NCBI GenBank assembly: GCA_036172245.1
Contig: JAYWIR010000071.1
Coordinates: 62,001 to 126,000, forward strand
Direction of reading: 5' to 3'
Origin: Raillietiella orientalis
Lineage: Eukaryota
DNA length: 64,000 nt
Shown here: piece after piece, positions 5,421 through 52,625 of the stretch
How the letters are laid out: every line of letters starts with the position of its first letter
How positions within the stretch are numbered: the first letter of the stretch is position 1
The notes under the pieces: generated by a model
Told to the model about the DNA's origin: nothing
Database searches by the model: none
The model's input: the letters and a program-made list of their open reading frames with translations, nothing else
Made by a program: the position numbers and the translations under genes

Positions 5421-7877
5421 CCGTCGATACGCCGTTCTTCCCCTGGCGTCCCGGGAATACCTAATCTCGTCCAGGATGTTCAAGTCACCCACGACGATGA
5501 TGATGTCCTTCGGTGGCACTCGTTTGCGGAGTTCTTCTTGCAGTTTCTCCGCGCACCGATGCTTGATCTTGTGCGGTCCGTAAACGTTCACCAGGAAGAG
5601 GTGAACGTTACTGGACCAGGACAGTCGCACGCCGATTCTCTGCCAGTTACCGGACAGATGGTTTCCAGAATGGTGTGGGCTAGCTCGTTCTTGATGAGAC
5701 TCGCCACATCCATGGTACTCTTCTGTTCTTCGCTGGCGAACAGTTGTTCGTTTAAACGGCGTTCTATCTCCAGGGTGATCTGATGCCCGATACGGTGGGC
5801 TTCTGAAATGGAAAGCATATCTTGTCTTGCGATGGTCCGGATGCCACTTTTGCTCTTGCCTTCGTTAGTAGGGCCATTGAGGTTCCAGGAGGCGATGTTA
5901 ATTCACCTGACGGTGGACAGCCACGAGGCCTAAAACGGGTTTATTTACTTGTTTTTCTTGCTTTTCTTAGCATCTGCTGGGGAGACCTTTGCTGTTTCCC
6001 TGCAGAAGAAGCGGGTTTCTCACTACCGGCATCGCTCTCGGTGCCGGTGTGGTCGGTGGACTCGGGATCTTCTCCGGAGCGTTCCGCCTTGGCGATCACC
6101 TTGCGCGGGAGGGTCTCCAGGGAGACCGTCGCGCAGTAGGCCGCCTTGACGTCTGAGAGCTGGGCCTCCATCTTCTCTCGCTCCGGCTCCACAACCATAC
6201 GGTTGACTTCGTCTTGAGCCACGGAGATGCGGGTCAGGAGTTGCTCCTGTTGCGCCTCTGTCTGGCCTTGACGAACCTCCTCCGCCAGTTTGACCACCTC
6301 CTCGATGAGTTGAAGGGCCTCCTGCGACTCCGGGGTGGGTTCCGGCATCTTCACCACTTCCTCTGCTACCTCCATCGTCTCGCCTTCCACTGCTGCAACC
6401 TCACGAGTTGGGGGGGTTTGTTTCTCCCTTACGAGCATCTTCCTCTTCCCCTTTTTCCCTATCTCGACGAGCCCGTCCGCCGAGACCGGAGCGGCCTCCC
6501 TCACCTTCTTTTGTTTTGCTAGCTGAGGTTTAATCACCTCAGCTAGCACTCTTTCCCTCACGTGGGATTCTCCACGTATTGTCCGGTAGTTAGCAAACTC
6601 CGGACAACTGCATTTCGCATGCCCGGGTTGTTTGCAGAAAGAGCAAACTTAGGGCATGGTACAATTTCGGACCACGTGGCCCATCTTTCCGCACCGGAAA
6701 CAGCGCGACCTAGGGCACGCGCCCATCCGGTGGCCAAAGTTTTTGCAGCCGGTGCAAAAGATCGGCTGCTGCCTGTATCGAATTGAGACGTCCTGCGACG
6801 CCTCGTCGATGTGGACGTTTCCGGGGATTTGCGCCCCCTCCTTTAATTCTATCTTGGCGATCAGCTCGCCCGAGAAGGTGCTTCCGGAGATGTTCTGGGT
6901 TTTCATCTCCAGAACTTCTCCGTATTGGGACAGGAAGTCCCACACCGTTTGCCTCTCGGTGAGGATGCCAAGACCATTCACGAAGACGGTCGTGTAATTC
7001 ATCTCGCCGATGCCTTGCACCATCTTCCCCTGGATATTGATGCCCTTTTCGATAAGGGCCTCCCGCAGCTCCTCCCAGTCGGTGTAGAGGATGAATCCCG
7101 CTGAGTTCGGGATTATCGCCTGCAGCCGGTCAAAATCTACGTTCGTCTTATAGAGGGCGCAGTACACCTCCCTCACATTGTTGAACCGCATCAGTACGGT
7201 TTTTAAAATTATCGGCTTGGACGCTGGGCTGAGTCGAACCATCGGCTCCTTCGTTCGAGTGATGATTTCACTCGCCGGTTTGCCGAATGCTCTGTTTGGT
7301 TGGGCAGAGGCCTGCCCCGCCGTCACCGCCGCATAGGAAAACGGCGGCTTTACCGCCGTCGCCGAGCAAGATGGTGTCGCACCTTGCACTGTGTGCGCCG
7401 CGTGGACGCCCGCGGCTCCCGCCTGGGACGCCGCCGTCGCCGCTGCGGGCGCAACCCTCGTCGTCGCCGTCGCCGATGTCGCCGTAGGCGGGACCTTCGG
7501 CATCGCCGCCGCCGGCACGACCTTCCCCGCCGCGGGCGCGATCCTCGGCGTCGCCGCCGCGGGCACGACCTCCATCGCCGTCGCCGCGGGCACGACCCTC
7601 GGCATCGCCGCCGCCGGCGCAGCAAAGCCTGCCGCGGGCGCGACCCTCGGCGTCGCCGCTGCCTCCTCGCCACTGCCGCATATTACCTCCATGTGTTCTT
7701 CCATGGGGGTCGACGGCTGCTCCACTTCCTGACGGTGCCTCCTTGCGGCTGCCGTTGCTGCCGCACTTCCTGTTTGGAGGACTTCCACCTCGGGTCCTTC
7801 GGCGCTGCGGCTGCTTCTGCTGTCGGGTATTTCCGTCGGTGGCACAGTCACTTCCACACTATGTTTCACTAGGCACT
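5421..7877 (-). mobile_element. E6: Tx1-like element, family A-related, decayed and 3'-truncated within the APE domain
   Basis: ORF1 has a nonsense codon at 6649-6651. The ORF2 ATG is lost near 5931, with a TGA and frameshifts after it. Homology to E4 stops at ~5421 (AYRR). Confidence 0.88.
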
Positions 7878-7988
7878 TGCCCTCTCGGGGCACGCAAAAA
7901 TTGCCGCGGCAGTGGTTTTACGCACTGCCTTGGCGGGGTATTGGGTAAAGTTTTCAACTAGCAATAATCGCGGCTCAGTCGCCTTCCT
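7878..7988 (-). ncRNA. U4: 5'-truncated U4 snRNA copy (nt 30-140) between E5 and E6
   Basis: 111 nt matching U4 nt 30-140. Confidence 0.93.
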
Positions 7989-8079
7989 TTCCCCAGTCCG
8001 GCGTGCGGTGGGGTATATTTATTTTAAACAATAACAAAAGACACTTATTATAAATGCTGCGGCCCAATCGGGTGCATCT

Positions 8080-11000
8080 TCACACCGTCCCGGCCGCACA
8101 TTGCACTATCCTGAGGCAATGTTGGAAGGTCCACGAGGGGACTCTCCCGCATGCTCGAATGTTTATTTCCTTTTTCAAGAGTCCGCAAAGGACGTCCAGG
8201 GCACTGCACGATTCACCTAGGCCTAGCTTAAACCTTCGTATGAGAATACTTCTCATGAAGGAGGCCACGATCACTCTCACGGTGGGATTGTAGCGGGGTA
8301 CTCCGTCTTCGCCCTCGAAGAGTCCTCTCAGGATCTCGAGCGTCGACATTTCCTCCATCCTCACCGCCCTCCTCACGGTCTTCCAGTTTCTCGCGAGGGT
8401 GCGGCAGGTGTATATGTGAAGGTCATCCTCGATTGACCCACATCCTGGGCACCCGTCGTCGTCGGGATTTCCGGTCCAGTGCTGAAGCCTCGTGCCACAC
8501 AGTATGCCTCCGTGATAAAACATCAGCAGGCAGTCCTGTATGTCCGGTGGTAACGAGGATCTCCATAGGACCATCCCGATTGCCTGTGCGTGGACGCCGG
8601 GATTGCCTAACCTACACTTGATCTTCATCATCGCCTCGGACGGTGTTGTTTCCTGGAGACTAAGGAGGTTATTGTTCTGGAGGTTTACCCTGGACCATTG
8701 GGAGCCCTGATCTTTCCAGAGCTCCCGGGTTTTATGGGTTATCTTCCCCTCCAGCTGACGTTTGTATGCGAGGACTCGGCGGGCGTGTATAACTACGCTA
8801 TTCGCCAGTCGCTCCGTGTCTTCCATGGTGATCTTTCGGGTCTTCCTGATCCACTTTTCAGTGTCCCACGGTACGTTCATGAACAGGGGAATCACCTTGG
8901 TGACTTCCCTGTTCCAGACTTCTTTACTTCGGGGTACCACTCGCAGTTTCAAAGTCCATGTTAAACGCTGGATTCGAGGCCACGTAGGGTCCACTTGGTC
9001 CCAGCCGCCCGCGGTGAGCGTCACGGCTGACGTGAGGCCGTCGGTTCCGTGCACCATTCTTGCGAAGGCACGGTGGAACGCGAACGGCCACTCGTCCCAT
9101 GCGCTGACCATTCGGACCAGGTTTTTCAGGTCCTGGAGTTTCACGGCACTTGCGACTGTGCGCATGCCGGTTCCTCCTTCCGTCCGCGGGCGGCACAGGT
9201 ACCGCAATTTCGTCTTGGGTCGTTTCCCGCTCCAGACAAGGTTCCTCTGGATGGCGGCCAGGTGTTTTGCCGTCCTCGGGGGAAACGATGAAAAGGACGC
9301 TGCGAAGAGAAACTTCGGCGCCATCACCCCGTTCCACAGGTTCGCCTTGTCCTTCTGGGAGAAGGATCTTCCGGTGTATTGGCTGGCTTCTTCGCGCAGC
9401 TTGGCCAAGATGTTGGACCATTGCTGCGCCTCCAGGGCAGGTGTTTCTTCGCCGATGCGTATCCCCAGGTACTTCACGTTGTCCTCGATCTGGTAGCCGT
9501 GGGCGTGCAGGACGGTGACGTCCGGGATTCCCACGGCGAGCAGATGGGACTTGTTGGGGTTCACTCGGAGTCCGAGGCCGCACTCCATGGCCTGCACGAC
9601 GTCCAGGAATGACTCCTGGTCCTGCTCGTCGGTCATGACGAATACCAGGTCGTCTGCGTAGGCCAGGTGTGTGATCTTGGGTTCTTGTTCGCCGAGGTCG
9701 ATACCCTTCAGTTGGCTCTCGTGTTCAACGAAGGCACTGACTGCCTCCATGTACAGTACGAAGAGCATGGGACTCAGGGCATCTCCCTGTCGGACTCCTT
9801 TTTCCATCTTGATGCTAGTCGACGATAGCCCGTTGACGACTATCGAGAAGTTGGCCTCTTCCAAGGTATGAGCCACGTGCTGCACGAATCTCCCCTGGAA
9901 GCCAAGTTTTCCGAGGATTTTCAGCAGCATGGCGTGGTCCACCGAGTCGAAGGCCTTCTCGATGTCGGTGAAGCCCAGTACCAGGTCCATTCCTACGGTA
10001 CGGCTGTACCCTCGGAGGGCCTGGATACACTTCAGGTTATCCCACATGCGTCTGCCTGGCACGGCACACGTCTGTGTGGGGGAAACCGCGGACTTCATGC
10101 ATTGGCTCAGCCTGTTTGCCCAGATCTTCGCCATCCATTTCGCGTCCGAATTCAGTACGGATATGGGTCTCCACTGCGTGACGCTGTGGAGGTCCCCGCC
10201 GCTCTTGGGGAGCAGCCTCATCCTGCTTCGGTGAAAGGAGGCGGGCAGTCGATGTTCCTGGTCGATGCATTCCAGCAGCTGACGGAACAGGCGCAGGTAG
10301 TGCGTTACGTGCCTCTGATAGTGCGTTACGGGGACGCTATCCGGGCCCGCAGCCACATCCTTGCGCAATCCGTCGAAAGCCGCTTTGATCTCCTCGACTG
10401 TAAATTGCTTTTCCAGGTCGTTGATTTCTTTGGAGGTCAGGCGTTTCTTCACGCAACGGAGGATCCGCTCCTGACCTCCCGGGTCCAAAGTCGCTATCTT
10501 GAATAATTCGGTGTAGTGGTGTTGGAATGCTTCCAGCACTTGCTCCGAGGTCCTGTAGTCCTTATCCTGGTAACGGACATGGAATATGTCCGTTGCCAGG
10601 TTTCGCTTCTCCAGCCGTCCGATGTCCTTTTTCACGCTTTTCTCGAGGAAGCGACTCTGGTACTGTTCCCAGTACACGGAGTGGGAGGGATGGAATTCAC
10701 ACATCTCCCTGTACGCTTCCTCGCGGGGATCCCGATCGCCGTACTGCATGTTGGAGAAGAGGTGGATGGTGTGTTTCAGGGCATCCCAGTCGTCCACGCG
10801 CAGGATGTTGGTCGTGGCAAGGATGGTTTCCACGACGCGCTGGTACGGCGGAAAACGTTCGTACCATTCGGGCATGCAGATGAGTGCGGCCCGAGGTGGT
10901 GCGTTTTCCTTCCTGGGATTCCTGGATGTCATTCTCCATTTCAGCAGGGGATGGTCCGAGATTCCGGTACTCAGTTCCCGGATCCCCTGCATGCGGTTCG

Positions 11001-11592
11001 CCAGAGTTCCCGAGTGCAACACGTAGTCGATGTGCGTCGCGTTCGCTCCCGTGCACAGGAGGGACAGTTCCTCCATCATGCAGCGGTACACGTCGTACGC
11101 ACCCGACTCGTTGTGCCGACAGCCGTCCAGGCGGACGTTAAAGTCGCCTGCAATCACGACGACGTCTTTCGGGGTGATCTTGCTCTGGACTAGGCCTGCA
11201 AGACTTGTCGCGAAGGCTTTCTTGTTGAATAGTGGCCCGTACACGTTCACTACAAGTAGGTGAACGCTTCCGGACCACGCCATTCTCAATCCCACGACGC
11301 GGCCATTCCATCCGATGAAAACTTCCAGGACGGTAGGCGCAAGGGTCTGCTTGAGGAGAATGGCCACACCTTTGCGGTTAGTCGAGCCCTGGTTGACATG
11401 GACGTCGACTTGCAGTTCTCTTTCCAGTTCTTGGCATGCTTCGGGCGTCATGAAGTGGGTTTCCTGCAGGCAGCAGATTGCCTCCTGTCGTAAGAGCCAC
11501 TTCATATGTTTCCTGCTCATCGGGTTCGTGCATCCGTTGATGTTCCAGGATGCGAACCCGATTTTCCATGCTGACGATAGGTACTGGATCAT
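8080..11592 (-). CDS. E5 ORF2, APE-RT (1170 aa)
   Basis: SWNING, LQETH, GDFN, IDY, SDH; WRPISVLNSD, GVRQGD, YADD, YLG; CPGC...H...C. Confidence 0.95.
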   Translation of the reverse strand: MIQYLSSAWKIGFASWNINGCTNPMSRKHMKWLLRQEAICCLQETHFMTPEACQELERELQVDVHVNQGSTNRKGVAILLKQTLAPTVLEVFIGWNGRVVGLRMAWSGSVHLLVVNVYGPLFNKKAFATSLAGLVQSKITPKDVVVIAGDFNVRLDGCRHNESGAYDVYRCMMEELSLLCTGANATHIDYVLHSGTLANRMQGIRELSTGISDHPLLKWRMTSRNPRKENAPPRAALICMPEWYERFPPYQRVVETILATTNILRVDDWDALKHTIHLFSNMQYGDRDPREEAYREMCEFHPSHSVYWEQYQSRFLEKSVKKDIGRLEKRNLATDIFHVRYQDKDYRTSEQVLEAFQHHYTELFKIATLDPGGQERILRCVKKRLTSKEINDLEKQFTVEEIKAAFDGLRKDVAAGPDSVPVTHYQRHVTHYLRLFRQLLECIDQEHRLPASFHRSRMRLLPKSGGDLHSVTQWRPISVLNSDAKWMAKIWANRLSQCMKSAVSPTQTCAVPGRRMWDNLKCIQALRGYSRTVGMDLVLGFTDIEKAFDSVDHAMLLKILGKLGFQGRFVQHVAHTLEEANFSIVVNGLSSTSIKMEKGVRQGDALSPMLFVLYMEAVSAFVEHESQLKGIDLGEQEPKITHLAYADDLVFVMTDEQDQESFLDVVQAMECGLGLRVNPNKSHLLAVGIPDVTVLHAHGYQIEDNVKYLGIRIGEETPALEAQQWSNILAKLREEASQYTGRSFSQKDKANLWNGVMAPKFLFAASFSSFPPRTAKHLAAIQRNLVWSGKRPKTKLRYLCRPRTEGGTGMRTVASAVKLQDLKNLVRMVSAWDEWPFAFHRAFARMVHGTDGLTSAVTLTAGGWDQVDPTWPRIQRLTWTLKLRVVPRSKEVWNREVTKVIPLFMNVPWDTEKWIRKTRKITMEDTERLANSVVIHARRVLAYKRQLEGKITHKTRELWKDQGSQWSRVNLQNNNLLSLQETTPSEAMMKIKCRLGNPGVHAQAIGMVLWRSSLPPDIQDCLLMFYHGGILCGTRLQHWTGNPDDDGCPGCGSIEDDLHIYTCRTLARNWKTVRRAVRMEEMSTLEILRGLFEGEDGVPRYNPTVRVIVASFMRSILIRRFKLGLGESCSALDVLCGLLKKEINIRACGRVPSWTFQHCLRIVQCAAGTV

Positions 11593-11612
11593 CGACGGGC
11601 TGTGGAGACGGT

Positions 11613-13115
11613 CTATTTGACCTTTCTCTTCTTTTTGGACAGTGGTGCCCTTGTCTGGGCGCGCCTGTCCTTCTTTCTATTTCCCCTGTTTCCCTGGTCT
11701 CTAGCGCCCTCCTCCTCGGAGTTGTCCTCTTCCGAGTTGCAGGAGAGCACTACTTGGATTTCCGCTTCCTCCCCCTGTTTAGGTTTCTCCTCCTTAAGTA
11801 CGAGGGGGGTTAGGCTGACGTACACTTGCTCCTCAAGGTGCATCGCTGCCTGAGGCGAGATTGTCTCTTGCCTCAGGCTTTCCAGCAGCTCTTTCGACTG
11901 CTGGAATGCCAGCCCTTTTTCTTGGTCGTTCGCGACCTCGCTAATTGTTGAGCGAAGGTCGTCAATTTTCGCCTGCAGGTCGCTCGTGGTTGCCTCGTGC
12001 CCGATTTCTCCCTTGGGAGTCTCGTCGGTGGAGGCTACGGGCTCTTTTCGCTCCCTGCTTCTCCCGCTGTCGATTGGTGCCGCCTGGGTTTTCCTTTCTG
12101 GAGTAGGGGGAAGAGAAGGCTTGGAAGTCTCCACCGGAGTTTCGGGAGAGCTCTCCTTTTGCTTTCTCCTCTCTTCCTGGAAGGCTAGCCAATCTTGGTA
12201 TTTGTGGCATTCCTTCCTCTCGTGCCCCCCGGCCTTGCAAAAGTAGCAACGCTTGGGGCGTTCGCATGCGGCATCAGCGTGCTTCGCCTTGCCGCAGTGC
12301 TTGCACCTTCTCTCCGGGCAAACCACCGTCCTGTGACCGAAAACCATGCAGGTGCGGCAGAAGTCCGGTTGTTCACGGTACGCCACGCGTACTAGGTGCG
12401 AGTTCTCGTCGATTCGGACCAGGGTAGGGATCTGCGCCCCTTTCCGCATCCGGATTTTCACGATGGCTTCTCCACCGTACCTTTTCTGGTGGTAGCCAAT
12501 TTCGTTCATGCGGACGACTTCGCCGTATTGATCGAAGTATTCCATCACCGCGTCTACTTCCGTCATCGGATGCACTCCGGACAAGTACACCGACGTAGCC
12601 GCGAGTTCGGAAACTCCGCGGATGATGTGGCCGTTTATTTCGAGGCCGTTCTCCACCAAATCGTCGATGAGCTCGGGTTTATCCGTATACACGGCGAAAC
12701 CCCCCACGTAAAAAACGATGGCTTTCACATCTTCGAAGTCGATCCTCTTACGGTGAATCGCGAGGTATATCTCGCGAACGGAGTTGTTGGTCAGTCGACC
12801 CATGAGAAAAGTGACCGCAGTGACCTCCGGGCCGAATTTTCGCATGGGGCCTGAACCCCTCTTCAACTCTCTCCCGACGATAACGCCGTTTCCCACTGCT
12901 GATGCAACTCCCGAACTGGACGCAGCCACGCTCACGTACGACGGCGCTGCGGGTACCTGACCTGCTGTCGCAGCTGCGGACGTCGTTGCGATCGCCGTGG
13001 AGGGTCCAGCTTGCACTTGCATCCTGGATTTCTTTTCCCCTCTCTTCCCTGGAATTCCTGTATTCCTCGGTTTCCCACGTGCGTTGGTGGATAGTGAAGG
13101 GTCCACCTTCCTCAC
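11613..13115 (-). CDS. E5 ORF1 (RRM-like + 3 CCHC knuckles); first ATG at 13022
   Basis: CRTCMVFGHRTVVC, CKHCGKAKHADAAC, CYFCKAGGHERKEC; basic C-terminus SKKKRKVK. Confidence 0.87.
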   Translation of the reverse strand: MRKVDPSLSTNARGKPRNTGIPGKRGEKKSRMQVQAGPSTAIATTSAAATAGQVPAAPSYVSVAASSSGVASAVGNGVIVGRELKRGSGPMRKFGPEVTAVTFLMGRLTNNSVREIYLAIHRKRIDFEDVKAIVFYVGGFAVYTDKPELIDDLVENGLEINGHIIRGVSELAATSVYLSGVHPMTEVDAVMEYFDQYGEVVRMNEIGYHQKRYGGEAIVKIRMRKGAQIPTLVRIDENSHLVRVAYREQPDFCRTCMVFGHRTVVCPERRCKHCGKAKHADAACERPKRCYFCKAGGHERKECHKYQDWLAFQEERRKQKESSPETPVETSKPSLPPTPERKTQAAPIDSGRSRERKEPVASTDETPKGEIGHEATTSDLQAKIDDLRSTISEVANDQEKGLAFQQSKELLESLRQETISPQAAMHLEEQVYVSLTPLVLKEEKPKQGEEAEIQVVLSCNSEEDNSEEEGARDQGNRGNRKKDRRAQTRAPLSKKKRKVK

Positions 13116-13147
13116 TTTGCACCGAACACTGTTTTTTCACGATCACT

Positions 13148-13268
13148 TGCCCTCTCGGGGCACGCAAAAATTGCCGCGGCAGTGGTTTTACGCACTGCCT
13201 TGGCGGGGTATTGGGTAAAGTTTTCAACTAGCAATAATCGCGGCTCAGTCGCCTTCCTCGCCTACGAT
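13148..13268 (-). ncRNA. U4: 5'-truncated U4 snRNA copy (nt 20-140) between E4 and E5
   Basis: 121 nt matching U4 nt 20-140. Confidence 0.93.
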
Positions 13269-18850: not shown

Positions 18851-18967
18851 TGCCCTCTCGGGGCACGCAAAAATTGTTGCGGCAGTGGTTTTACGCACTG
18901 CCTTGGCGGGGTATTGGGTAAAGTTTTCAACTAGCAATAATCGCGGCTCAGTCGCCTTTCTCGCCTA
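18851..18967 (-). ncRNA. U4: 5'-truncated U4 snRNA copy (nt 24-140) between E3 and E4
   Basis: 117 nt matching U4 nt 24-140. Confidence 0.93.
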
Positions 18968-19130
18968 TTTTCCCCAGGTCCCACAAGGGGTGGGGTAAAT
19001 TTATTTTCCTATAAAAACATTCACGCTACAATCACATTCATACACTTTCACTTTTCCTCACTTATCACTGGTCACTTTGGCACTTGTCCTTGAAGTTCAC
19101 TTCTGGGCGTCTGAGAAGTCACTGCTCTAC

Positions 19131-22100: not shown

Positions 22101-22112
22101 AAAAAGGTGGTT

Positions 22113-23741: not shown

Positions 23742-23969
23742 CGCCGCTGTGGCGCCAGAAACACACGATTACCCTACCTCCATGGGCTGAGGCTTCTCCG
23801 TGGTTCCCATCCACCGCTGCTCTTGCATCTTGACGGGGTGCTGCTGCACCGCCGCCGGGGAGGGTCGCGACTCCTCCACCTTGGACTCCCTATGGCTGCT
23901 GCTGCTGCTGCTGCACTCGCTGTGGGACGTCCTGAGTAGCGCACTCACTGTTTTTTTTCACTATTCACT

Positions 23970-24089
23970 TGCACTCTCGATGCACGCAAAAATTTCCGCG
24001 GCAGTGGTTTTACGCACTGCCTTGGCGGGGTATCGGGTAAAGTTTTCAACTAGCAATAATCGCGGCTCAGTCGCCTTCCTCGCCTCGAT
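23970..24089 (-). ncRNA. U4: 5'-truncated U4 snRNA copy (nt 20-140, T24 deleted) between E2 and E3
   Basis: 120 nt; 1-nt deletion at U4 nt 24; variant terminal hairpin TGCAT-CGAGA-GTGCA. Confidence 0.93.
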
Positions 24090-24243
24090 TTTCCCCAAGT
24101 CCCACAAGGGGTGGGGTAAATTTATTTTCTATAAAAATACAATTTTGCATTCACACTCGCATTCACACTCACATTCACTCTATGTTTCCTCTTTGTTTTT
24201 CACTTTGAAGTCCTGGGGGGTACACTAGAGTACTGCTTTTACC

Positions 24244-27200: not shown

Positions 27201-27761
27201 CGGCTTGTGGCTAGCTGTTCGCCACAAAAGTCCGAACTCGTCGGACAGCAGCCGATACGCCGCTCTTCCCCTTGCATCCTGAGAATACTTGATTTCATCA
27301 AGGATGTTGAAATCCCCAGCGACGATGACTATGTCCTTCGGTGCCACTCGTTTGCGGAGTTCTTCTTGCAGTTTCTCCGCGCACCGATGCTTGATCTTGT
27401 GCGGTCCGTAGACGTTCACCAGGAAGAGGTGAACGTTACTGGACCAGGACAGTCGCACGCCGATTACTCTGCCAGGTACCGGACAGAAAGTTTCCAGAAT
27501 GGTGTGGGCGAGCTCGTTCTTGATGAGGATCGCCACCCCCATGGTCTTCTTCTGTCCCTCGCTGGCGAACAGTTGTCCGTCGAATCGGCGTTCCATCTCC
27601 AGGGCGTTCTGCTGCCCGAGACGGTGGATTTCTTGTAGGCACACCACATCCTGTCTTGCGATGGTCCGCATGACACTTTTTCTCTTTCCCTGGTCCGTCA
27701 GTCCATTCACATTCCAGGAGGCGATGTTAATCCTCCTGGCACTGGACAGCAACCAGGCCAT
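24244..27761 (-). pseudogene. E2 ORF2 pseudogene (APE-RT)
   Basis: TAA stops at 26334-26336, 26034-26036 and 25419-25421, plus a 1-nt deletion near 25354, relative to E1. Confidence 0.9.
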
Positions 27762-27777
27762 GAAATGGGGGGGAGTT

Positions 27778-29649
27778 CTACTTCACCTTTCTTGCCTTCC
27801 TTAGCTTCTTCTGCTGGGGAGACTTGTTCAGTTTCTCTGCTGAAGAAGTGGGTTTTTCACTGCCGGCATCGCTCTCGGTGCCGGTGTGATCAGTGGACTC
27901 CTGTTCGTCCACAGAGCGTTCCGCCTTGGCGACCACCTTGCGCGGAAGGGTCTCCAGTGAGACCGTCGCAAAGAATGCCGCCTTCAGGTCGCCCAGCTGG
28001 TCCTCCAGCTTTTCCCGCTCTGGTTCTACAACCATGCGGTTTACGTCGTCTTGGACCTCGCAGATGCGGTTCAGGATTTTTGCCTGTTCCGCCTCCGGTT
28101 GGCCCTGGCGAACCTCCTCTGCCAGTTTAACCACCTCCTCGGAAAGTTGCAGGGCCTCCTGCGTCTCCGGGACTGGTTCTGGCGTCTTCTCCTCCTTCTC
28201 CGTTTCCTCCGCCACCTCCATACTCTCGCCTACCGCTGCTTCAACAACCGGGGTTTGAGGAATCTGTTGCTCCCTTGCGAGCATCTTCCTTTTCCCCTTC
28301 TTCCCCACCTCCACGAAGCCGTCTGCCGAAACCGGAGCGGCCTCTCTTGCTTTCCTCTGCTTTGCTAGCTGAGGTTTGATTACCTCAGCTAGCACCCTTT
28401 CCCTCACCGGGGACTCTCCTCTAATCGTCCGGTAGTTTGCATACTCCGGACAGCTCCATTTCGCATGCCCTGGTTGCTTGCAAAAGGAGCATAGCTCGTG
28501 CATGCTACAGTTCCGGACCTGGTGGCCCTGTTTCCCGCACCTGAAGCAGCGAGATCTAGGGCAGGCACCCATCCGGTGGCCAAAGTCCTTGCAACCGAGA
28601 CAGAAGATCGGTTGCTGACGGTACCTGACGTTCACCTCTTGCGAGGCTTCGTCAATGTGCACCAAACCGGGGATTTGGGCACCTTCTTTAAGCTTAATTT
28701 TGGCGATTACTTCGCCCGAGAAGATGTCTCCGGAGATGTTCTGGAAGTTTACATCCAGAACCTTTCCGTATTTCTCCAGGAAATCCCACACCGTTTCTTG
28801 CTCGGTGAAGATTCCCACTCCTCTGAGGTGGACGGTGGTGTAAGGCATTTCTCCTACTCCTTGTACCATTTTTCCCTGAATATTGATGCCCTTTTCGATT
28901 AGGGCCTCCCGCAATTCCTCGCAGTCCGTGTACAGTGTAAAACCTGACGTGCTGGGAATGATCGCTTGGAGAAGATCAAAGTCGACGTTGGTTGTAAAGA
29001 GAGCACAGTACACCTCTCTTACGTTGTTAAACCGGATCAATCCGGTCTTAAACATAATTGGTTTCGACGCTGGACTTAGGCGAACCATTGGTTCTTTGCA
29101 TCGCGTGATGCGTCCAGTCGTCGGCTTCCTGAATGTTCGGTTTGGCTGGGCAGAGGCCTGCCCCGCCGTAACCGACGCATACGAAAACGGCTTTGTAGCC
29201 GAACCCGAACAAGATGGCGTCGCCATGTACGCCGCGTGGACGCCCGGGGCTCCCGCCTGGGACGCCGCCGCCGCCGCTGCGGGCGCAACCCTCGTCGTCG
29301 CCGTCGCCGATGTCGCCGTAGGCGGGACCTTCGGCATCGCCGCCGCCGGCACGACCTTCCCCGCCGCGGGCGCGATCCTCGGCGTCGCCGCCGCCGGCGC
29401 AGCAAAGCCTGCCGCGGGCGCGACCCTCGGCGTCGCCGCTGCCTCCTCGCCACTGCCGCATATTACCTCCATGTGTTCTTCCATGAGGGTCGACGGCTGC
29501 TCCACTTCCAGACGGTGCCTCCTTGCGGCTGCCGTTGCTGCCGCACTTCCTGTTTGGAGGACTTCCACCTCGGGTCCTTCGGCGCTGCTGCTGCTGCTGC
29601 TGTCGGGTATTTCCGTCGGTGGCACAGTTACTTCCACACTATCTTTCAC
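27778..29649 (-). CDS. E2 ORF1 (RRM-like + 3 CCHC knuckles)
   Basis: CLGCKDFGHRMGAC, CFRCGKQGHQVRNC, CSFCKQPGHAKWSC; open frame. Confidence 0.87.
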   Translation of the reverse strand: MKDSVEVTVPPTEIPDSSSSSSAEGPEVEVLQTGSAAATAAARRHRLEVEQPSTLMEEHMEVICGSGEEAAATPRVAPAAGFAAPAAATPRIAPAAGKVVPAAAMPKVPPTATSATATTRVAPAAAAAASQAGAPGVHAAYMATPSCSGSATKPFSYASVTAGQASAQPNRTFRKPTTGRITRCKEPMVRLSPASKPIMFKTGLIRFNNVREVYCALFTTNVDFDLLQAIIPSTSGFTLYTDCEELREALIEKGINIQGKMVQGVGEMPYTTVHLRGVGIFTEQETVWDFLEKYGKVLDVNFQNISGDIFSGEVIAKIKLKEGAQIPGLVHIDEASQEVNVRYRQQPIFCLGCKDFGHRMGACPRSRCFRCGKQGHQVRNCSMHELCSFCKQPGHAKWSCPEYANYRTIRGESPVRERVLAEVIKPQLAKQRKAREAAPVSADGFVEVGKKGKRKMLAREQQIPQTPVVEAAVGESMEVAEETEKEEKTPEPVPETQEALQLSEEVVKLAEEVRQGQPEAEQAKILNRICEVQDDVNRMVVEPEREKLEDQLGDLKAAFFATVSLETLPRKVVAKAERSVDEQESTDHTGTESDAGSEKPTSSAEKLNKSPQQKKLRKARKVK

Positions 29650-29657
29650 TAGGCACT

Positions 29658-29778
29658 TGCCCTCTCGGGGAACGCAAAAATTGCCGCGGCAGTGGCTTTA
29701 CGCACTGCCTTGGCGGGGTATTGGGTAAAGTTTTCAACTACCAATAATCGCGGCTCAGTCGCCTTCCTCGCCTACGAT
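29658..29778 (-). ncRNA. U4: 5'-truncated U4 snRNA copy (nt 20-140) between elements E1 and E2
   Basis: 121 nt nearly identical to U4 nt 20-140 with a few substitutions; lacks the U4/U6 stem II segment. Confidence 0.93.
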
Positions 29779-32700
29779 TTTCCCCAAGTCCCACAAGGGG
29801 TGGGGTAAATTTATTTTCTATAAAAATACAATTTTTGCATTCACACTCACATTCACTCTATGTTTACTCTTTGTCTCTCACTTTGAAGTCCTGGGGGGTT
29901 CACTAGAGTTCTGCTTTTACCTCAGGGTGGATTTCCAGCTGGATGGTCCCGGGCGTCGTCCTCGATCCTCTTCAGGATGAATCTGTACGTCCAGGCTTGG
30001 ATGCGTCCACAATTCCTGATGCCGATCTCCTTCTTGATGAGTCCTTGCAGGATCTCCATCGGGGTTGCGGCTCTGCTGGCTCTTCTCATCTTCCACCACC
30101 GCACAAGTATGGCGGTGATGAAGAGGGCAATGGTCGTCCTCACCATGGGATTGTAACAGGGAACATTACCATTTCCCTGAAACATCCCGGCGAGGATCTC
30201 CATCACGGAACTGGTCGTCATTCCAATGATCCTTTTCAGGATCAGCCAGTCGTGAAGGAGTGTGGGACACGTCAAGATGTGAAGTCTTGTATCGTTGTCA
30301 CCACACGCCGTGCAGTCTCCGTCTTCCCGTCTTCTGGTGAAGTACTTGAGTCTGGACCCGCTCAGGATACCTCCATGGTAAAACATCAGGAGGTTGTCCT
30401 GGGTGTCCGGCGGAAGGTCACTCCTCCAGAGCGTTGTGCCGATCGCCAACAGGTTGATGCGATCGCTCCCGTAGCGGTCGGCGGCTTCTTGGAGGGCACT
30501 GCTATCCTTTTCTTCGTCTCTGATCATCTTCCGGAGGTTCATTTTGGTCACCCTCGACCACGCGAAGTCGTTGTGGTTAATCCACACCTCGCGGGTCTGG
30601 TGGGTGAACCTCCCTAACATCATCTCTATGTACCGGAGTACACGAGAATGATGTAGGTATCCTCCTCGGCGCCATTCCTGGATCCGTTGCAGGGTAACTC
30701 TGGGCCGCTGGTAGATCCAGCTTCTCGTGTCCGGAGGGACCGGAAGCATCCAGGGGATCACCAGGATGGACTCGTCCTGCCAGAGTTCCCTGCTTCTTGG
30801 CACGATCTTCATCTTGTGCTTTCGCACAAGCCGCTGTTTTCTTCTCCAGGTTGGGTCGATGGTGATCCATTCCCCTGCTCGGCCTAGCAGCGCAGTCATC
30901 AGGCCTTTCGAGTTGTTCAGCAACAACGCGTAGGCCCTGTGCGCCGCATACGGCCAGTCATCCCAGTGAGTGGCTATGTCCAGGATGTGTCGCGTATCCA
31001 TGATTTCCATGGAATGTGCAGGCGACTTCATCCCGGAACCGCCTTCTTCCCTGGGACGACACAGAGGTTTGAGACGGACTCTTGGGCGATAATGGCCCCA
31101 CAAAGTTTTCCTCTGCAGCTTTTCTACTTCTCTTGTGGTTTCTTTATTCATTCGTGCGAAGGCCGCCACGAAGAGTATCTTTGGTAGAAGTACTCCGTTC
31201 CACAGGTTGGCTCTTCGCTTCATGTTAAAGTCCACTCGAGTGTACTTCGCTGCTTCCTTGGCCGTTTTCCCCAGGATTTCCGTCCACAGCAGTTTCGACG
31301 CAGAGTCGTCGCCGATGTAGACTCCCAGGTACTTGGCCGTGTCCACCGTACGGAATCCACTCCCCGTTAGAGTGGAGAGGTTCAGGATTCCGACGGGCAA
31401 AAGCTGGCTCTTTTGGGCGTTGATTTTCAAGCCCAGTCCCTGTTCCATGAGGTCGACCACATCCAGGAACGCTCCTTGATTCCTCTCTCCCTTGATGAAG
31501 AAGAGGAGATCATCTGCGTATGCCAGATGGGTCAGGTGCTGACCATCAATGGAAATCCCTGATAGACGACCGCTTCTCTCGATGTAAGAAGACAGCGCCT
31601 CCATGTATATGACGAACAGCATTGGACTTAGCGAGTCGCCCTGCCGGACTCCTCGTTCCATCCTAATTGCTGCCGTCTCTTGGCCGTTGATTTTGATACG
31701 GCAGTACTGGTTTTGGAGTACCGCCCTCACGAAGTTGCTGAAGTGTTCCGGAAGCCCAAGCTTCTCCAGAACCTTCAGCAGCATCCCGTGGTCGATGGAG
31801 TCGAAGGCCTTCTCCATGTCGGTGAACACCAGCACCAGGTTCTCGCCGACGTATCGGCTGAGACCGACGGTGGCCTGGGCACACTTGACATTGTCAGACA
31901 TGTGTCGTCCTGGGACTGCACACGTCTGGACCGGAGAGATCAGCCTCGACATGACCCTGCCTAAGCGGTTGGACCAGATCTTCGCCAACCACTTGGCATC
32001 TGAGTTTAGGATCGAGATAGGCCTCCATTGAGCGATCTGCGTGAGATCGCCTCCTTTTGGCAGCAATCTCATCCTGCTCTCGTAGAAGGATTCCGGAAGT
32101 CGTCCTTCTTCTCGGATGCAGAGTGTCAACTGGTGGAACAAACGCAGGTAGGCGTGCAGGTACCGCTGATAGTGCGAGATGGGTACACTATCAGGGCCTG
32201 CTGCCACATCCTTGCGAAGCTGCCCAAACGCAGTCTTCACTTCTTCTTCGGAGAACTCCTCCTCCAGTCTACTTCTTTGGAGGTCGTCCGTCCTCTTCTC
32301 GAGGTAACCCAGGAAGGCTTGCTGACTCGAGCGGCAGAGATCTTGTCGTCGGAAGTGTCTCGCGTAATGCCTGTGAAAGGCTTCCGCGATATCCTCCGAC
32401 GTGTGTCGCTCTTGGCCGTCGCACTGGATGCAGAAGATATCTGTCGCCAGATTCCTCTTTTCCAGCACGCCGACCTCCCCTTTCATGTTCTGGAAGACGT
32501 ACCGACTCTCGTACTGATCGAAGTACTTCGAGAGGGAGCGATCTTGGATGTTCAGCTCCCGGTACGCTTCCTGCCTCATACGCTTACAAAAATACTGCAT
32601 ATTGCAGAACAGATGGATCCTGTGCTTCAACCTGTCCCAGTCGGCGACTCTGCGGATGGTGGTGTCCCGCAGAATCGCCTCGATGACCTCCTGGTGACAG

Positions 32701-35393
32701 GGAAGCGTTTCGAACCAGGCGGGCATGCAGATGAGCGCCGCCCTGGTGGCCTTTTCCCTACGGGGATTTTCAGTGCGGAGTGTAAACCGTACCAATGGGT
32801 GATCGGACAACAGGTGTGGAATGTCACGAAAACCCTGGATGCGGTTGTCTATCTCCGCACTGTGGAGGACGTGATCGATCGGTTTGTGGCTAGCTGTTCG
32901 CCACAAAAGTCCGAACTCGTCGGACAGCCGCCGATACGCCGCTCTTCCCCTTGCATCCTGAGAATACTTGATTTCATCAAGGATGTTGAAATCCCCAGCG
33001 ACGATGACTATGTCCTTCGGTGCCACTCGTTTGCGGAGTTCTTCTTGCAGTTTCTCCGCGCACCGATGCTTGATCTTGTGCGGTCCGTAGACGTTCACCA
33101 GGAAGAGGTGAACGTTACTGGACCAGGACAGTCGCACGCCGATTACTCTGCCAGGTACCGGACAGAAGGTTTCCAAAATGGTGTGGGCGAGCTCGTTCTT
33201 GATGAGGATCGCCACCCCCATGGTCTTCTTCTGTCCCTCGCTGGCGAACAGTTGTCCGTCGAATCGGCGTTCCATCTCCAGGGCGTTCTGCTGCCCGAGA
33301 CGGTGGATTTCTTGTAGGCACACCACATCCTGTCTTGCGATGGTCCGCATGATACTTTTTCTCTTTCCCTGGTCCGTCAGTCCATTCACATTCCAGGAGG
33401 CGATGTTAATCCTCCTGGCACTGGACAGCGACGAGGCCATGAAAGGGGGGGGAGTCCTACTTCACCTTTCTTGCCTTCCTTAGCTTCTTCTGCTGGGGAG
33501 ACTTGTTCAGTTTCCCTGCTGAAGAAGTGGGTTTTTCACTGCCGGCATCACTCTCGGTGCCGGTGTGATCAGTGGACTCCTGTTCGTCCACAGAGCGTTC
33601 CGCCTTGGCGACCACCTTGCGCGGAAGGGTCTCCAGCGAGACCGTCGCACAGAATGCCGCCTTCAGGTCGCCCAGCTGGTCCTCCAGCTTTTCCCGCTCT
33701 GGTTCTACAACCATGCGGTTTACGTCGTCTTGGACCTCGCAGATGCGGTTCAGGATTTTTGCCTGTTCCGCCTCCGGTTGGCCCTGGCGAACCTCCTCTG
33801 CCAGTTTAACCACCTCCTCGGAAAGTTGCAGGGCCTCCTGCGTCTCCGGGACTGGTTCTGGCGTCTTCTCCTCCTTCTCCGTTTCCTCCGCCACCTCCAT
33901 ACTCTCGCCTACCGCCGCTTCAACTACCGGGGTTTGAGGAATCTGTTGCTCCCTTGCGAGCATCTTCCTTTTCCCCTTCTTCCCCACCTCGACGAAGCCG
34001 TCTGCCGAGACCGGAGCTGCCTCTCTTGCCTTCTTTTGTTTCGCTAGCTGAGGTTTGATCACCTCAGCTAGCACCCTTTCCCTCACGGGGGATTCTCCAC
34101 GGATTGTCCGGTAGTTAGCAAACTCCGGACAACTCCATTTCGCATGCCCGGGTTGTTTGCAGAACGAGCAAACTTCGGGCATGGTGCAATTTCGGACCAC
34201 GTGGCCCATCTTTCCGCACCGGAAACAGCGCGACCTAGGGCACGCGCCCATCCGGTGGCCAAAGTTTTTGCAGCCGGTGCAAAAGATCGGCTGCTGCCTG
34301 TATCGAATTGAGACGTCCTGCGACGCCTCGTCGATATGCACGTTTCCGGGGATTTGCGCCCCCTCCTTTAATTTTATCTTGGCGATCAGCTCGCCCGAGA
34401 AGATGTTTCCGGAGATGTTCTGGGTTTTCATCTCCAGAACCTCTCCGTATTGGGACAGGAAGTCCCACACCGTTTGTCTCTCGGTGAGGATGCCAAGGCC
34501 ATTCACGAAGACGGTCGTGTAAGGCATCTCGCCGATGCCTTGCACCATCTTCCCTTGGATGTTGATGCCCTTTTCGATAAGGGCCTCCCGCAGCTCCTCG
34601 CAGTCTGTATAAAGGATAAATCCCGCTGAGTTCGGGATTATCGCCTGCAGCCGGTCAAAGTCCACATTCGTCTTGTAGAGGGCGCAGTACACCTCCCTCA
34701 CATTGTTGAACCGGATCAGTCCGGTTTTAAAAATTATCGGCTTGGACGCCGGGCTGAGTCGAACCATCGGCTCCTTCGTTCGAGTGATGATTTCACTCGC
34801 CGGTTTGCCGAATGCTCTATTCGGTTGGGCAAAGGCCTGCCCCGCCGTCACCGCCGCATACGAAAAAGGCGGTTTCGCCGTCGCCGCCGAGCAAGATGGC
34901 GTCGCACCTTGCACTGTGTGCGCCGCGTGGACGCCCGCGGCTCCCGCCTGGGACGCCGCCGCCACCGCGGGCGCGACCCTCGGCGTCGCCGCTGCCTCCT
35001 CGCCACTGCCGCATATTACCTCCATGTGTTCCTCCATGTGGAGCAGCCGTCGACCCCCTTCTTCCTTGTGCCTCCTTGCGGCTGCCGTTGCTGCCGCGCT
35101 TCTTGTTTGGAGGACTTCCACCTCGGGTCCTTCGGCGCTGCTGCTGCTGCTGCTGTCGGGTATTTCCGTCGGTTGCACAGTCACTTCCACACTATTCTTT
35201 TCGAGGCACTTGATCTGTTCTTCCATGGGGGTCGACGGCTGCTCCACTCCTTGGATGTGCCTCCTTGCGGCTGCCGTTGCTGCCGCACTTCTTGTTTGGA
35301 GGACTTCCACCTCGGGTCCTTCGGCGCTACTGCTGCTGTCGGGTATTTCCCTCGGTGGCACAGTCACTTCCACACTATTCTTCGGCAGGCACT
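29779..35393 (-). mobile_element. E1: L1/Tx1-clade non-LTR retrotransposon, family A, apparently intact, directly downstream of the intact U4 gene
   Basis: ORF1 + ORF2 (APE, RT, zinc finger); 3' UTR with AATAAA, terminal hairpin and short A-tail joined to U4 nt 20. Confidence 0.93.
29922..33440 (-). CDS. E1 ORF2, APE endonuclease-reverse transcriptase (1172 aa)
   Basis: APE motifs SWNVNG, LQE, GDFN, IDH, SDH; RT motifs WRPISILNSD, DMEKAFD, GVRQGD, YADD, YLG; C-terminal CTAC...H...C. Confidence 0.95.
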   Translation of the reverse strand: MASSLSSARRINIASWNVNGLTDQGKRKSIMRTIARQDVVCLQEIHRLGQQNALEMERRFDGQLFASEGQKKTMGVAILIKNELAHTILETFCPVPGRVIGVRLSWSSNVHLFLVNVYGPHKIKHRCAEKLQEELRKRVAPKDIVIVAGDFNILDEIKYSQDARGRAAYRRLSDEFGLLWRTASHKPIDHVLHSAEIDNRIQGFRDIPHLLSDHPLVRFTLRTENPRREKATRAALICMPAWFETLPCHQEVIEAILRDTTIRRVADWDRLKHRIHLFCNMQYFCKRMRQEAYRELNIQDRSLSKYFDQYESRYVFQNMKGEVGVLEKRNLATDIFCIQCDGQERHTSEDIAEAFHRHYARHFRRQDLCRSSQQAFLGYLEKRTDDLQRSRLEEEFSEEEVKTAFGQLRKDVAAGPDSVPISHYQRYLHAYLRLFHQLTLCIREEGRLPESFYESRMRLLPKGGDLTQIAQWRPISILNSDAKWLAKIWSNRLGRVMSRLISPVQTCAVPGRHMSDNVKCAQATVGLSRYVGENLVLVFTDMEKAFDSIDHGMLLKVLEKLGLPEHFSNFVRAVLQNQYCRIKINGQETAAIRMERGVRQGDSLSPMLFVIYMEALSSYIERSGRLSGISIDGQHLTHLAYADDLLFFIKGERNQGAFLDVVDLMEQGLGLKINAQKSQLLPVGILNLSTLTGSGFRTVDTAKYLGVYIGDDSASKLLWTEILGKTAKEAAKYTRVDFNMKRRANLWNGVLLPKILFVAAFARMNKETTREVEKLQRKTLWGHYRPRVRLKPLCRPREEGGSGMKSPAHSMEIMDTRHILDIATHWDDWPYAAHRAYALLLNNSKGLMTALLGRAGEWITIDPTWRRKQRLVRKHKMKIVPRSRELWQDESILVIPWMLPVPPDTRSWIYQRPRVTLQRIQEWRRGGYLHHSRVLRYIEMMLGRFTHQTREVWINHNDFAWSRVTKMNLRKMIRDEEKDSSALQEAADRYGSDRINLLAIGTTLWRSDLPPDTQDNLLMFYHGGILSGSRLKYFTRRREDGDCTACGDNDTRLHILTCPTLLHDWLILKRIIGMTTSSVMEILAGMFQGNGNVPCYNPMVRTTIALFITAILVRWWKMRRASRAATPMEILQGLIKKEIGIRNCGRIQAWTYRFILKRIEDDARDHPAGNPP

Positions 35394-35409
35394 TGCCCTG
35401 TGAGGGCAC
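33457..35409 (-). CDS. E1 ORF1, gag-like RNA-binding protein (RRM-like region + 3 CCHC zinc knuckles)
   Basis: CTGCKNFGHRMGAC, CFRCGKMGHVVRNC, CSFCKQPGHAKWSC. The open frame begins at a GTG inside the U4 3' hairpin; the true start is probably a downstream ATG (MEE...). Confidence 0.88.
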   Translation of the reverse strand: MPSQGKCLPKNSVEVTVPPREIPDSSSSAEGPEVEVLQTRSAAATAAARRHIQGVEQPSTPMEEQIKCLEKNSVEVTVQPTEIPDSSSSSSAEGPEVEVLQTRSAAATAAARRHKEEGGRRLLHMEEHMEVICGSGEEAAATPRVAPAVAAASQAGAAGVHAAHTVQGATPSCSAATAKPPFSYAAVTAGQAFAQPNRAFGKPASEIITRTKEPMVRLSPASKPIIFKTGLIRFNNVREVYCALYKTNVDFDRLQAIIPNSAGFILYTDCEELREALIEKGINIQGKMVQGIGEMPYTTVFVNGLGILTERQTVWDFLSQYGEVLEMKTQNISGNIFSGELIAKIKLKEGAQIPGNVHIDEASQDVSIRYRQQPIFCTGCKNFGHRMGACPRSRCFRCGKMGHVVRNCTMPEVCSFCKQPGHAKWSCPEFANYRTIRGESPVRERVLAEVIKPQLAKQKKAREAAPVSADGFVEVGKKGKRKMLAREQQIPQTPVVEAAVGESMEVAEETEKEEKTPEPVPETQEALQLSEEVVKLAEEVRQGQPEAEQAKILNRICEVQDDVNRMVVEPEREKLEDQLGDLKAAFCATVSLETLPRKVVAKAERSVDEQESTDHTGTESDAGSEKPTSSAGKLNKSPQQKKLRKARKVK

Positions 35410-35533
35410 ACAAAAATTGCCGCGGCAGTGGTTTTACGCACTGCCTTGGCGGGGTATTGGGTAAAGTTTTCAACTAGCAATAATCGCGGCTCAGTCGCCT
35501 TCCTCGCCTACGATACTGCCCGTGCGCAAGGCT
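35394..35533 (-). ncRNA. U4: U4 spliceosomal snRNA, full length (140 nt)
   Basis: Minus strand reads AGCCTTGCGCACGGGCAGTATCGTAGGCGAGGAAGGCGACTGAGCCGCGATTATTGCTAGTTGAAAACTTTACCCAATACCCCGCC...GCAATTTTTGTGTGCCCTCACAGGGCA, colinear with human U4 (AGCTTTGCGCAGTGGCAGTATCGTAGCC...GCGATTATTGCTAATTGAAAACTTTTCCCAATACCCCGCC). It has the U6-pairing stem II and stem I, a K-turn (GGC-GAG-GA...GA-GCC), an Sm site AATTTTTG and a terminal hairpin. Confidence 0.96.
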
Positions 35534-35594
35534 GGCGATTAAAGTTTTTGATGGTCCGGATTCCGCGGGCAGTATTTGTGCGTAGTTACGTATG

Positions 35595-36076
35595 CGTTTT
35601 ATTTGTGGTAGGTTTTGTTGAATTGGTGTTTTTGAGAGTATTGTTTAGTGGTTTTTTTATTTTGCTTTTTGTTTTGGTTTTTTTTGTCTTTCTTGTTATT
35701 TGAGTTTGTTTTTGACTTTGTGTTAGTTTGTTATTTTTCGCGGTTTTGTGAATTTGCTTCATGCTTCCCTCTTTGTTTTGATTCTTGAACTATTTTTTTT
35801 TCTATTATTTTACCATTTTTGTTGTGTGTAGTGATTTTTTTTTTTTCTTTGTTCTTTTTTGTGTGTTTCGTCTATTTTTCGTGTGATGTGTTTTTTTTCT
35901 TCGTTTATTTTGAAATTTTTTTTATTTCGTGGTTTGATTTTCTTCCACTAGATGCTGCTAGTTTCGTGTTTTGAATTTGGCCGTTTTTTGAATTTTCTTT
36001 GGATGCTCTTCGTGATTTTTCGCCCAAGGTAACGAATTGCTGTAAGAGGAGTACTTGTTTTTTTTTTTTTTTTTTT
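35595..36076. repeat. T-rich low-complexity tract upstream of the U4 gene, ending in poly(T)
   Basis: Strong T skew on the + strand; long T run at about 36058-36076. Confidence 0.85.
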
Positions 36077-49179: not shown

Positions 49180-49220
49180 TCCTCCTCCTCCTCTTCCTCC
49201 TCCTCCTCCTCCTCCTCCTC
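49180..49220. repeat. (TCC)n microsatellite
   Basis: About 13-14 TCC units, reading as poly-Glu on the minus strand. Confidence 0.9.

Positions 49221-52591: not shown

Positions 52592-52625
<34 letters not shown>

Follow-up and report, generated by a model that had tools for sequence, protein, structure and literature searches.

L1-like retrotransposons of three families joined to U4 gene fragments behind one intact U4 gene in Raillietiella orientalis

How can retrotransposons accumulate one behind another at a small nuclear RNA (snRNA) gene and still leave a complete copy of that gene in front of them? This question is raised by a stretch of 64,000 nucleotides (nt) from Raillietiella orientalis (assembly GCA_036172245.1, contig JAYWIR010000071.1, positions 62,001 to 126,000), hereafter the window, in which an intact gene for U4 snRNA is followed by six retrotransposons in the same orientation, with a fragment of U4 at each of the five internal junctions. 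The array was probably built by an L1/Tx1-like lineage which integrates specifically at U4 genes, between nt 20 and 21, with U4 nt 21-144 being duplicated or carried along and a whole U4 being kept. The finding is real and is best read as representing a U4-targeted lineage with an unusual, target-preserving integration outcome, the evidence for U4 specificity coming from this array and from one contig outside it. The features are given below in the order in which they are met on the U4 strand; coordinates are positions within the window, all array features lie on the minus strand, and open reading frames (ORFs) are measured in amino acids (aa):

35390-35533, minus strand: complete U4 snRNA gene, 144 nt to ...GGGCAAGTG; Rfam RF00015, 99.5 bits, model positions 1-138
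35213-35389, minus strand: 5' end (about nt 1-177) left from another copy of family A, aligned with the 5' ends of E2, E4 and E6
29778-35212, minus strand: element E1, family A; ORF1 of 645 aa (stop to stop), TAG, 17-nt spacer, ORF2 of 1179 aa, both open
29654-29777, minus strand: U4 piece p1 (nt 21-144), with 3 private substitutions
24089-29653, minus strand: element E2, family A, degraded; ORF2 in three pieces, its private changes including 3 stops and 4 frameshifting indels
23966-24088, minus strand: U4 piece p2 (nt 21-144 without T24), with 5 private substitutions
18968-23965, minus strand: element E3, family B; ORF1 of 551 aa, one in-frame stop, ORF2 of 993 aa
18847-18967, minus strand: U4 piece p3, with its junction at nt 24, or at nt 21 with nt 22-24 lost; 3 private substitutions
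13268-18846, minus strand: element E4, family A; a single 1810-aa ORF (18845-13416)
13144-13267, minus strand: U4 piece p4 (nt 21-144), equal to the consensus of the pieces
7989-13143, minus strand: element E5, family C; two ORFs, 507 and 1198 aa long, both open and overlapping
7874-7988, minus strand: U4 piece p5 (nt 30-144), equal to the consensus of the pieces
5421-7873, minus strand: element E6, diverged but related to family A; ORF1 with a stop, ORF2 having lost its ATG

The Rfam scan gave six RF00015 (U4) matches in the window, all on the minus strand, with bounds of 35533-35396 for the complete gene, scores of 52-76 bits for four of the pieces and a score of 46.0 bits, which is exactly the gathering score, for the match at 18852-18990 (p3). 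When aligned together with their flanks, the six copies proved near-identical from nt 21 (or 24, or 30) through ...GGGCAAGTG, and U4 nt 1-20 were present only in the copy at 35533: window-wide, this 20-mer was found once at up to 3 mismatches (0.01 expected), and a 40-nt core of U4 occurred six times (0 expected). The end of U4 was set at ...GCAAGTG, giving a gene of 144 nt and pieces of 115-124 nt. One consensus describes the pieces of all families, with no family-specific change, and private substitutions relative to it, counted by hand on the alignment, number 3, 5, 3, 0 and 0 from p1 to p5. Pieces flanking the same element are identical only around E5, p3 and p4 differing at 3 sites and p1 and p2 at 8. 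The terminal loop reads CGAGA in all five pieces and TCACA in the gene at the head of the array, which has one further difference; the pieces are therefore not simple copies of the present head gene.

The five truncated pieces score as full-length U4 (46-76 bits) because in the Rfam alignments the place of U4 nt 1-20 is taken by the element tail (CCTTGTGGGACTTGGGGAAAA), and automatic annotation would report six U4 genes here. Five of the six Rfam U4 calls are retrotransposon-borne fragments scoring at or above the gathering score, and snRNA gene counts in this genome will be inflated as a result. The tail weakly resembles U4 1-20 (GGG.A..A adjoining the junction), and the bounds assigned by Rfam to the truncated pieces are 29659-29800, 23970-24111, 18852-18990, 13149-13288 and 7879-8014.

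On their 3' side the elements share a conserved terminus of about 45 nt, AATAAA ... GGGGAAAA, the rest of the 3' untranslated region (UTR) not being alignable across families. Families A and B have TTTTTATA-GAAAATAAATTTACCCCACCCCTTGTGGGACTTGGGGAAAA as the sequence of this terminus, and a variant in family C carries changes on both sides of a possible stem; RNAalifold gave a 3' hairpin CCCC-A-CCC/GGG-GGGG with one compensatory pair, but with a single-sequence z-score of -0.66 and the tail of E5 cut in the input no structure is claimed. At all five 3' ends AATAAA lies about 30 nt before a run of 2-4 A at the junction, which makes this look like the ordinary 3' end of a long interspersed nuclear element (LINE). 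The junctions themselves are found at U4 nt 21 (E1, E2, E4), nt 24 (E3) and nt 30 (E5), so that all five, from three families, fall within nt 21-30, and the U4 5' stem-loop has its base at nt 20/21 in the Rfam alignment. On their 5' side all six elements start 0-3 nt after the last base of U4 (...GGGCAAGTG): three variable bases (CCT, CCT, AAT, AAT, ATC, CCT) are followed by a motif common to the three families, (A)GTGAAA[A/G]A...A[T/C]AGTG, beyond which the families diverge. The array is an exact concatenation of the unit element plus U4 21-144 behind one whole U4.

The elements measure 5.0-5.6 kb each, homology in E6 stopping at 5421, within the apurinic/apyrimidinic endonuclease-like (APE) domain. 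In all-against-all blastn, E1, E2 and E4 are mutually 93-95% identical in DNA and define family A, to which E6 shows 80-88% identity; E3 is about 73% identical to E4 in DNA and 66% in protein, E5 about 66% and 40-45%. The same comparison revealed no terminal repeats, no search aimed at long terminal repeats (LTRs) being made. The canonical layout of family A, seen in E1 and E2, is ORF1, TAG, a 17-nt spacer and the ATG of ORF2, and the fusion of ORF1 with ORF2 in E4 is derived, through a TAG to AAG change and the loss of 1 nt in a run of C. Reading frames are open throughout in E1, E4, E5 and possibly E3, and broken in E2 and E6; with complete ORFs in E1, E4 and E5, the group is young. Imperfect tandem repeats of 24-72 nt lie in the Ala/Pro-rich ORF1 N-terminus, at 7480-7663 (E6), 18481-18632 (E4) and 29314-29443 (E2), so this region of the family-A ORF1 varies in length. 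Between the head gene and E1, the 177-nt remnant is followed by CAAGTG, the last 6 nt of U4, then by CCT and E1 proper, and the 5' end of E1 accordingly gives double blastn matches (two 5' repeats).

Domain evidence was drawn from Pfam for E3, E4 and E5 and from tblastn against E4 for E1 and E2, the truncated E6 being left out; Exo_endo_phos and RVT_1 were found in each of E1-E5. The single ORF of E4 runs from an Ala/Pro-rich N-terminus through a CCHC knuckle, the APE domain and the reverse transcriptase (RT) to a putative Cys/His C-terminus, with Exo_endo_phos (2e-16, aa 652-852) N-terminal to RVT_1 (4e-33, aa 1100-1346). The zf-CCHC matches of E4 (23.9 bits) and E3 (23.1 bits) both exceed the Pfam cutoff of 20.8, the ORF1 knuckle resembling those of Lin28, and an RRM in E5 is sub-threshold (15.5 bits, cutoff 27). 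Pfam gave no match in the last 395 aa of E4, where a C-x2-C ... H-x3-C string is visible by eye in the translation. Among solved structures in the PDB the nearest is human L1 ORF2p (E 2.4e-54), with R2 proteins at 1e-21 to 2e-26. A search of a protein collection, limited to long proteins, scored 7,999 candidates, of which 484 reached E <= 1e-10; the 120 matches listed are 22-32% identical, and most of these carry RVT_1, Exo_endo_phos and zf-RVT. Judged from these comparisons, the elements are L1-like and without a close relative among the long proteins of the collection searched. A metagenome scan with the RT/C-terminal protein of E4 gave 40 pattern matches, only one of which passed tblastn (26 residues, 46% identity; irrelevant), and at the element 5' ends no Rfam family, and so no ribozyme, was matched at E <= 1 except for weak matches to Prion_pknot and HOTTIP.

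Much of this layout had been described in the original prediction, which was made from the letters of the DNA and a list of their reading frames. The single full U4 gene at the head of the array is borne out by its 99.5 bits and by its being the sole copy with nt 1-20; the six same-orientation elements with APE and RT were all recovered, along with the 177-nt remnant of a seventh; the three families stand at DNA identities of 93-95% (A), about 73% (B) and about 66% (C); and the assignment to non-LTR elements of the L1 type agrees with the domains found and with L1 ORF2p as the nearest structure, the narrower placing in the Tx1 clade being putative. The five internal junctions are indeed 3' pieces of U4, but their length, put at 111-121 nt, has to be revised to 115-124 nt, a figure which depends on the U4 end chosen.

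Whether the copies arrived separately or were multiplied in place can be addressed through their coding sequences. Compared with E4, the ratio of nonsynonymous to synonymous substitution (dN/dS) is 0.24 for E1, 0.22 for E2, 0.20 for E3, 0.32 for E5 and 0.23 for E6, that is, below 0.35 in all five, at dS values of 0.16, 0.17, 1.2, 1.7 and 0.43, respectively, so that purifying selection is seen in every comparison, within family A too. From the low ratios it follows that the copies diverged as functioning elements elsewhere and that each of them arrived separately, and on this evidence the array cannot owe its origin mainly to tandem duplication in place. Differences among the U4 pieces amount to no more than 4%, against up to 44% in DNA among the elements. 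Ratios from private changes (pN/pS) are 0.54 for E1, 0.28 for E2 and 0.26 for E4, with E4 as a baseline that makes the split between lineage and decay unstable, and private changes yielded no clean insertion order, whether elements were paired with the upstream or with the downstream pieces.

Support from outside the window comes from one public sequencing run, which contains 54% of the sampled E1 words; no RNA run is among those listed as matching. When contig depths are summed on 29500-35800, most of the element's 3' two-thirds stands at 60-90, its 5' third at 10-19 and the head U4 at 4-8; these figures are sums over contigs, not copy numbers, and the higher depth at the 3' than at the 5' end gives only a hint of additional 5'-truncated copies. 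One contig of 455 nt (depth 25.9) contains an ORF end with 17 differences in 172 nt (about 90% identity), a different 108-nt block of 3' UTR, and then the tail followed by the complete U4 piece as far as 29654, a match of 175 nt in which 9 positions differ. This divergence fits none of the complete 3' ends in the window, among which that of E6 does not figure, being absent from the window, and the contig therefore represents a further variant joined to U4 in the same way. The run may come from the sample that was used for the assembly, so the contig is no check on the assembly. Two further runs of the same study matched only at low-complexity spots: the run of CAG near 29588/35141, a stretch rich in TG near 29832 and, at 33865-33898, a run of purines. 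A reading of these matches as native U4 flanks was rejected on inspection of the sequence.

The presence of three families at one U4 junction, together with an ordinary LINE 3' end and an APE domain, argues for target-primed reverse transcription, which would be primed at U4 20/21, where the endonuclease would nick the bottom strand. Since U4 1-20 never precedes an element (0/6) and the U4 3' end always does, U4 21-144 must come to lie on both sides of each new copy, for which two routes may be envisaged. In route (a) the top strand would be cut at the U4 3' end, creating a target-site duplication of about 124 bp; a read-through RNA that stops at the U4 3' end might fix the far edge of the duplication by forming an R-loop over nt 21-144. 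In route (b) U4 would precede the element in the template RNA, having been transcribed together with it from the U4 promoter or added through a template switch to U4 snRNA, and the cDNA would end by joining the target U4 through homology. By either route an intact, promoter-bearing U4 would outlast each hit, so that the target stays available, and the array could be built by successive hits combined with recombination. Both routes are favoured by the U4 pieces of families A, B and C, which share a consensus despite dS > 1 and thus look host-derived, and the AATAAA and A tail before the U4 part are a further point for both. Other observations speak for route (b) and also for the rival, treated below, in which the U4 part belongs to the element: the duplicated block ends exactly at the U4 end, the loop is CGAGA as opposed to TCACA, the flanking pieces are identical only around E5, and the second repeat of E1 starts with the last 6 nt of U4.

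Several points weigh against this explanation. A fragment of U4 1-20 lies upstream of none of the six elements, so that simple cut-and-insert integration would need a further, hypothetical step, and a plain target-site duplication from the present head is contradicted by the TCACA loop there and the CGAGA loop in 5/5 pieces. The U4 pieces on the two sides of an element differ, E5 excepted. Decay of the copies is not in step with their position, as E2, second from the head, is broken and the deeper E3-E5 are open, and the 177-nt remnant before E1 indicates that the array has been rearranged, which means that its history is not directly readable. Finally, a single locus was examined, and the outside support consists of the one contig, from a run that is possibly the assembly's own sample. 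The mechanism proposed in the original prediction is affected in part: insertion in the U4 5' stem-loop with a complete U4 spared agrees with the junctions at nt 21-30 and with the whole U4 that is kept, but strict stacking at the head is not supported. With 3 stops and 4 frameshifts in E2 and with E3, E4 and E5 open deeper in the array, the idea that each insertion at the head pushed the prior U4 body downstream does not fit the condition of the copies, and the pieces are no simple copies of the present head U4, as their loops (CGAGA in all five) differ from that of the head gene.

The best of the rival explanations, which we regard as unlikely though worth keeping in view, is that U4 21-144 is the element's own 3' module and that the unit of element, tail and U4 21-144 lands directly behind any U4 3' end. 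The RNA would then end at the U4 3' end through snRNA-type processing, each insertion would bring a new target with it, and arrays would lengthen of their own accord behind a U4 gene that stays untouched. Units of just this kind, with both borders at ...GCAAGTG, follow one another exactly head to tail in the array, and neither a long target-site duplication nor a U4 1-20 fragment (0/6 upstream) would be required. Such a module would also account for CGAGA in all 5 copies and TCACA in the resident gene, permit open-frame copies (E4, E5) deep in the array, make the junction position a family trait (nt 21 in 3/3 family-A junctions, 24 in B, 30 in C) and explain why the second E1 repeat opens with CAAGTG, the end of U4. 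However, the modules of A, B and C have the same consensus over 115-124 nt at an ORF dS of 1.2-1.7, and their inheritance with the elements would need extreme constraint or constant exchange; moreover, with AATAAA about 30 nt ahead of the A run, transcripts would stop short of the module, and the pieces differ from the head gene in the terminal hairpin only, hence looking host-derived.

An elaboration of this rival, which we find doubtful and hold a shade more loosely, is that U4 21-144, comprising the K-turn 5' stem-loop, the central region, the Sm site and the terminal hairpin, has a function of its own within the RNA of the retrotransposon, in a form of small nuclear ribonucleoprotein (snRNP) mimicry producing a self-extending safe-harbour array. 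If so, transcripts would be released and ended by the host machinery for snRNA 3' ends and would bear a 3' domain like that of the U4 snRNP. The element would spare the host gene and supply the 3'-flank motif GTGAAA[A/G]A to the gene in front, and integration would take place directly behind any U4 3' end, with a fresh target being planted at each insertion.

It is improbable that the window preserves a former tandem cluster of U4 genes in which each downstream gene was hit at nt 20/21 and lost its spacer and U4 1-20 through a top-strand cut further upstream. A like layout, together with such an explanation, has been published for U2 and Utopia in Phytophthora, in the passages of PMC4640811 devoted to these arrays, and pieces derived from independent host genes would fit their shared consensus. 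The difficulty is that the 5' junctions lie within 0-3 nt of the U4 3' end in 6/6 cases, so that every deletion would need to have ended at one and the same base, with all traces of spacer and promoter removed.

A single ancient insertion multiplied on the spot through tandem duplication or unequal crossing-over, U4 being no longer targeted, would suit the same-strand, head-to-tail units and the rearrangement visible at E1, but is most improbable given that in-place decay predicts a dN/dS of about 1 instead of 0.20-0.32 in 5/5 comparisons at dS of up to 1.7, that three to four copies retain complete ORFs and that U4 pieces differing by <=4% accompany elements differing by up to 44%. Just as little probability attaches to artefact or chance, whether a misassembly of repeats, which copies diverged by 5-44% and hence easily told apart would hardly permit, or a clustering of untargeted chimeric retrocopies made by RT switching to U4 snRNA, a process documented for Tx1/L1 RT on snRNAs (SINEU, in the relevant part of PMC4494074) which gives U4 before the element and not a fixed junction of tail to nt 21 (5/5, three families).

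If the U4-targeting explanation is correct, the lineage would add a new target to the few site-specific LINEs known for snRNA genes, and the complete target gene left before every copy would explain how a parasite can persist on a low-copy family of essential genes. Site-specific LINEs are natural models for safe-harbour gene insertion, and R2 is already being engineered for this. Three diverged families at one junction, with several open frames, would make good material for cloning an endonuclease and RT with a defined recognition site of 20-30 bp.

As regards the DNA around the array, the 500 nt upstream of the intact U4 (35534-36033, minus strand) consist of 55-58% A and 9-12% G on the U4 strand, which is unusual for a promoter region; the A/G skew continues more weakly out to about 38000, T stays at 10-15% to about 38 kb, and no U4 upstream promoter element was recognised in this flank. 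From about 38800 to 52000 there follows a 13-kb block with 53-72% GC and long stop-free frames on both strands, in which five ORFs tested gave no Pfam match and no Rfam family was found; the block probably represents either GC-rich DNA without coding function or a repeat not recognised as such. At 52570-52960 weak Rfam matches resembling mir-297/mir-466 occur on both strands (29-35 bits, gathering scores 85-90), and microRNA genes were rejected here, the stretch being AT-rich (31% GC) with a 34-nt AT-rich repeat at 52851-52927 according to Tandem Repeats Finder. A fragment at 54103-54522 (minus strand), 28% identical to the C-terminal part of E4 (aa 1639-1775, E 4e-8) and not adjoining any U4, is by its similarity what is left of another L1-like element, distant from those of the array. 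At 62586-63936 (minus strand) lies the one host gene that was recognised in the window, as two exons of a mitochondrial-type cysteine-tRNA ligase gene, one with a hint of DALR_2 (18.6 bits) and the other 46-70% identical to animal proteins, insects coming first and molluscs and fish close behind among the matches listed.

How, then, does the array compare with known systems? No element targeting U4 was found in a search of the open full-text literature, a scope outside which lie Repbase Reports, Dfam and subscription journals, where a U4 entry may exist; within that scope, the original statement that no U4-specific group was known to its author stands. By 2015, according to the survey passage in PMC4640811, the elements reported to target snRNA genes were only Keno and Utopia (U2), Dada-U1 and Dada-U6, and the Tx1 targets named in the legend to Fig. 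3 of PMC4494074 are U2, U5, 5S, satellites, microsatellites and transposons, U4 not being among them. Keno is described in PMC4640811 as a Tx1-clade, APE-type non-LTR element specific for U2 snRNA genes. Like Keno and other Tx1 elements, those described here combine APE with RT and have a precise 3' junction inside a multicopy small-RNA gene of an animal. They differ from Keno in that their flanks are U4 (RF00015), with no U2 match by Rfam in the window, and from both Keno and Tx1 in that a whole U4 and not a U4 5' fragment stands upstream of the element, as well as in the low identity of their best database relatives (22-32% among the matches listed).

Dependence on the promoter of the target, use of co-transcribed target sequence for joining and switching of RT onto snRNAs are all on record, from the co-transcription of R2 and R1 and from U6-L1 (in humans) and SINEU chimeras, as the cited part of PMC4494074 recounts. 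In comparison with those chimeras of snRNA and LINE, the snRNA part here, being neither full length nor 3'-truncated, lacks its 5' portion at the integration site, and unlike R2 and R1 the elements show no ribozyme family at their 5' ends (Rfam, E <= 1). [quoted passage not shown]

In the U2 arrays of Phytophthora several families of Utopia are found, with downstream U2 starting from nt 39 and an intact U2 where a 5' fragment is expected, a layout whose mechanism is left unresolved by the authors in the passages concerned (PMC4640811). The likeness is considerable, as in both cases several families are stacked in one snRNA-gene array with a 3' gene fragment from a fixed nucleotide downstream and an intact gene upstream. 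The differences are that Utopia has a PD-(D/E)xK endonuclease C-terminal to RT and the elements here an APE N-terminal to RT, that the target is U2 nt 39 there and U4 nt 21 here, and that no spacer lies here between the U4 3' end and the next element. Judged by layout, Utopia in Phytophthora is the closest architectural parallel to the U4 array, and the structure of the repeated unit is shared with that unexplained case only.

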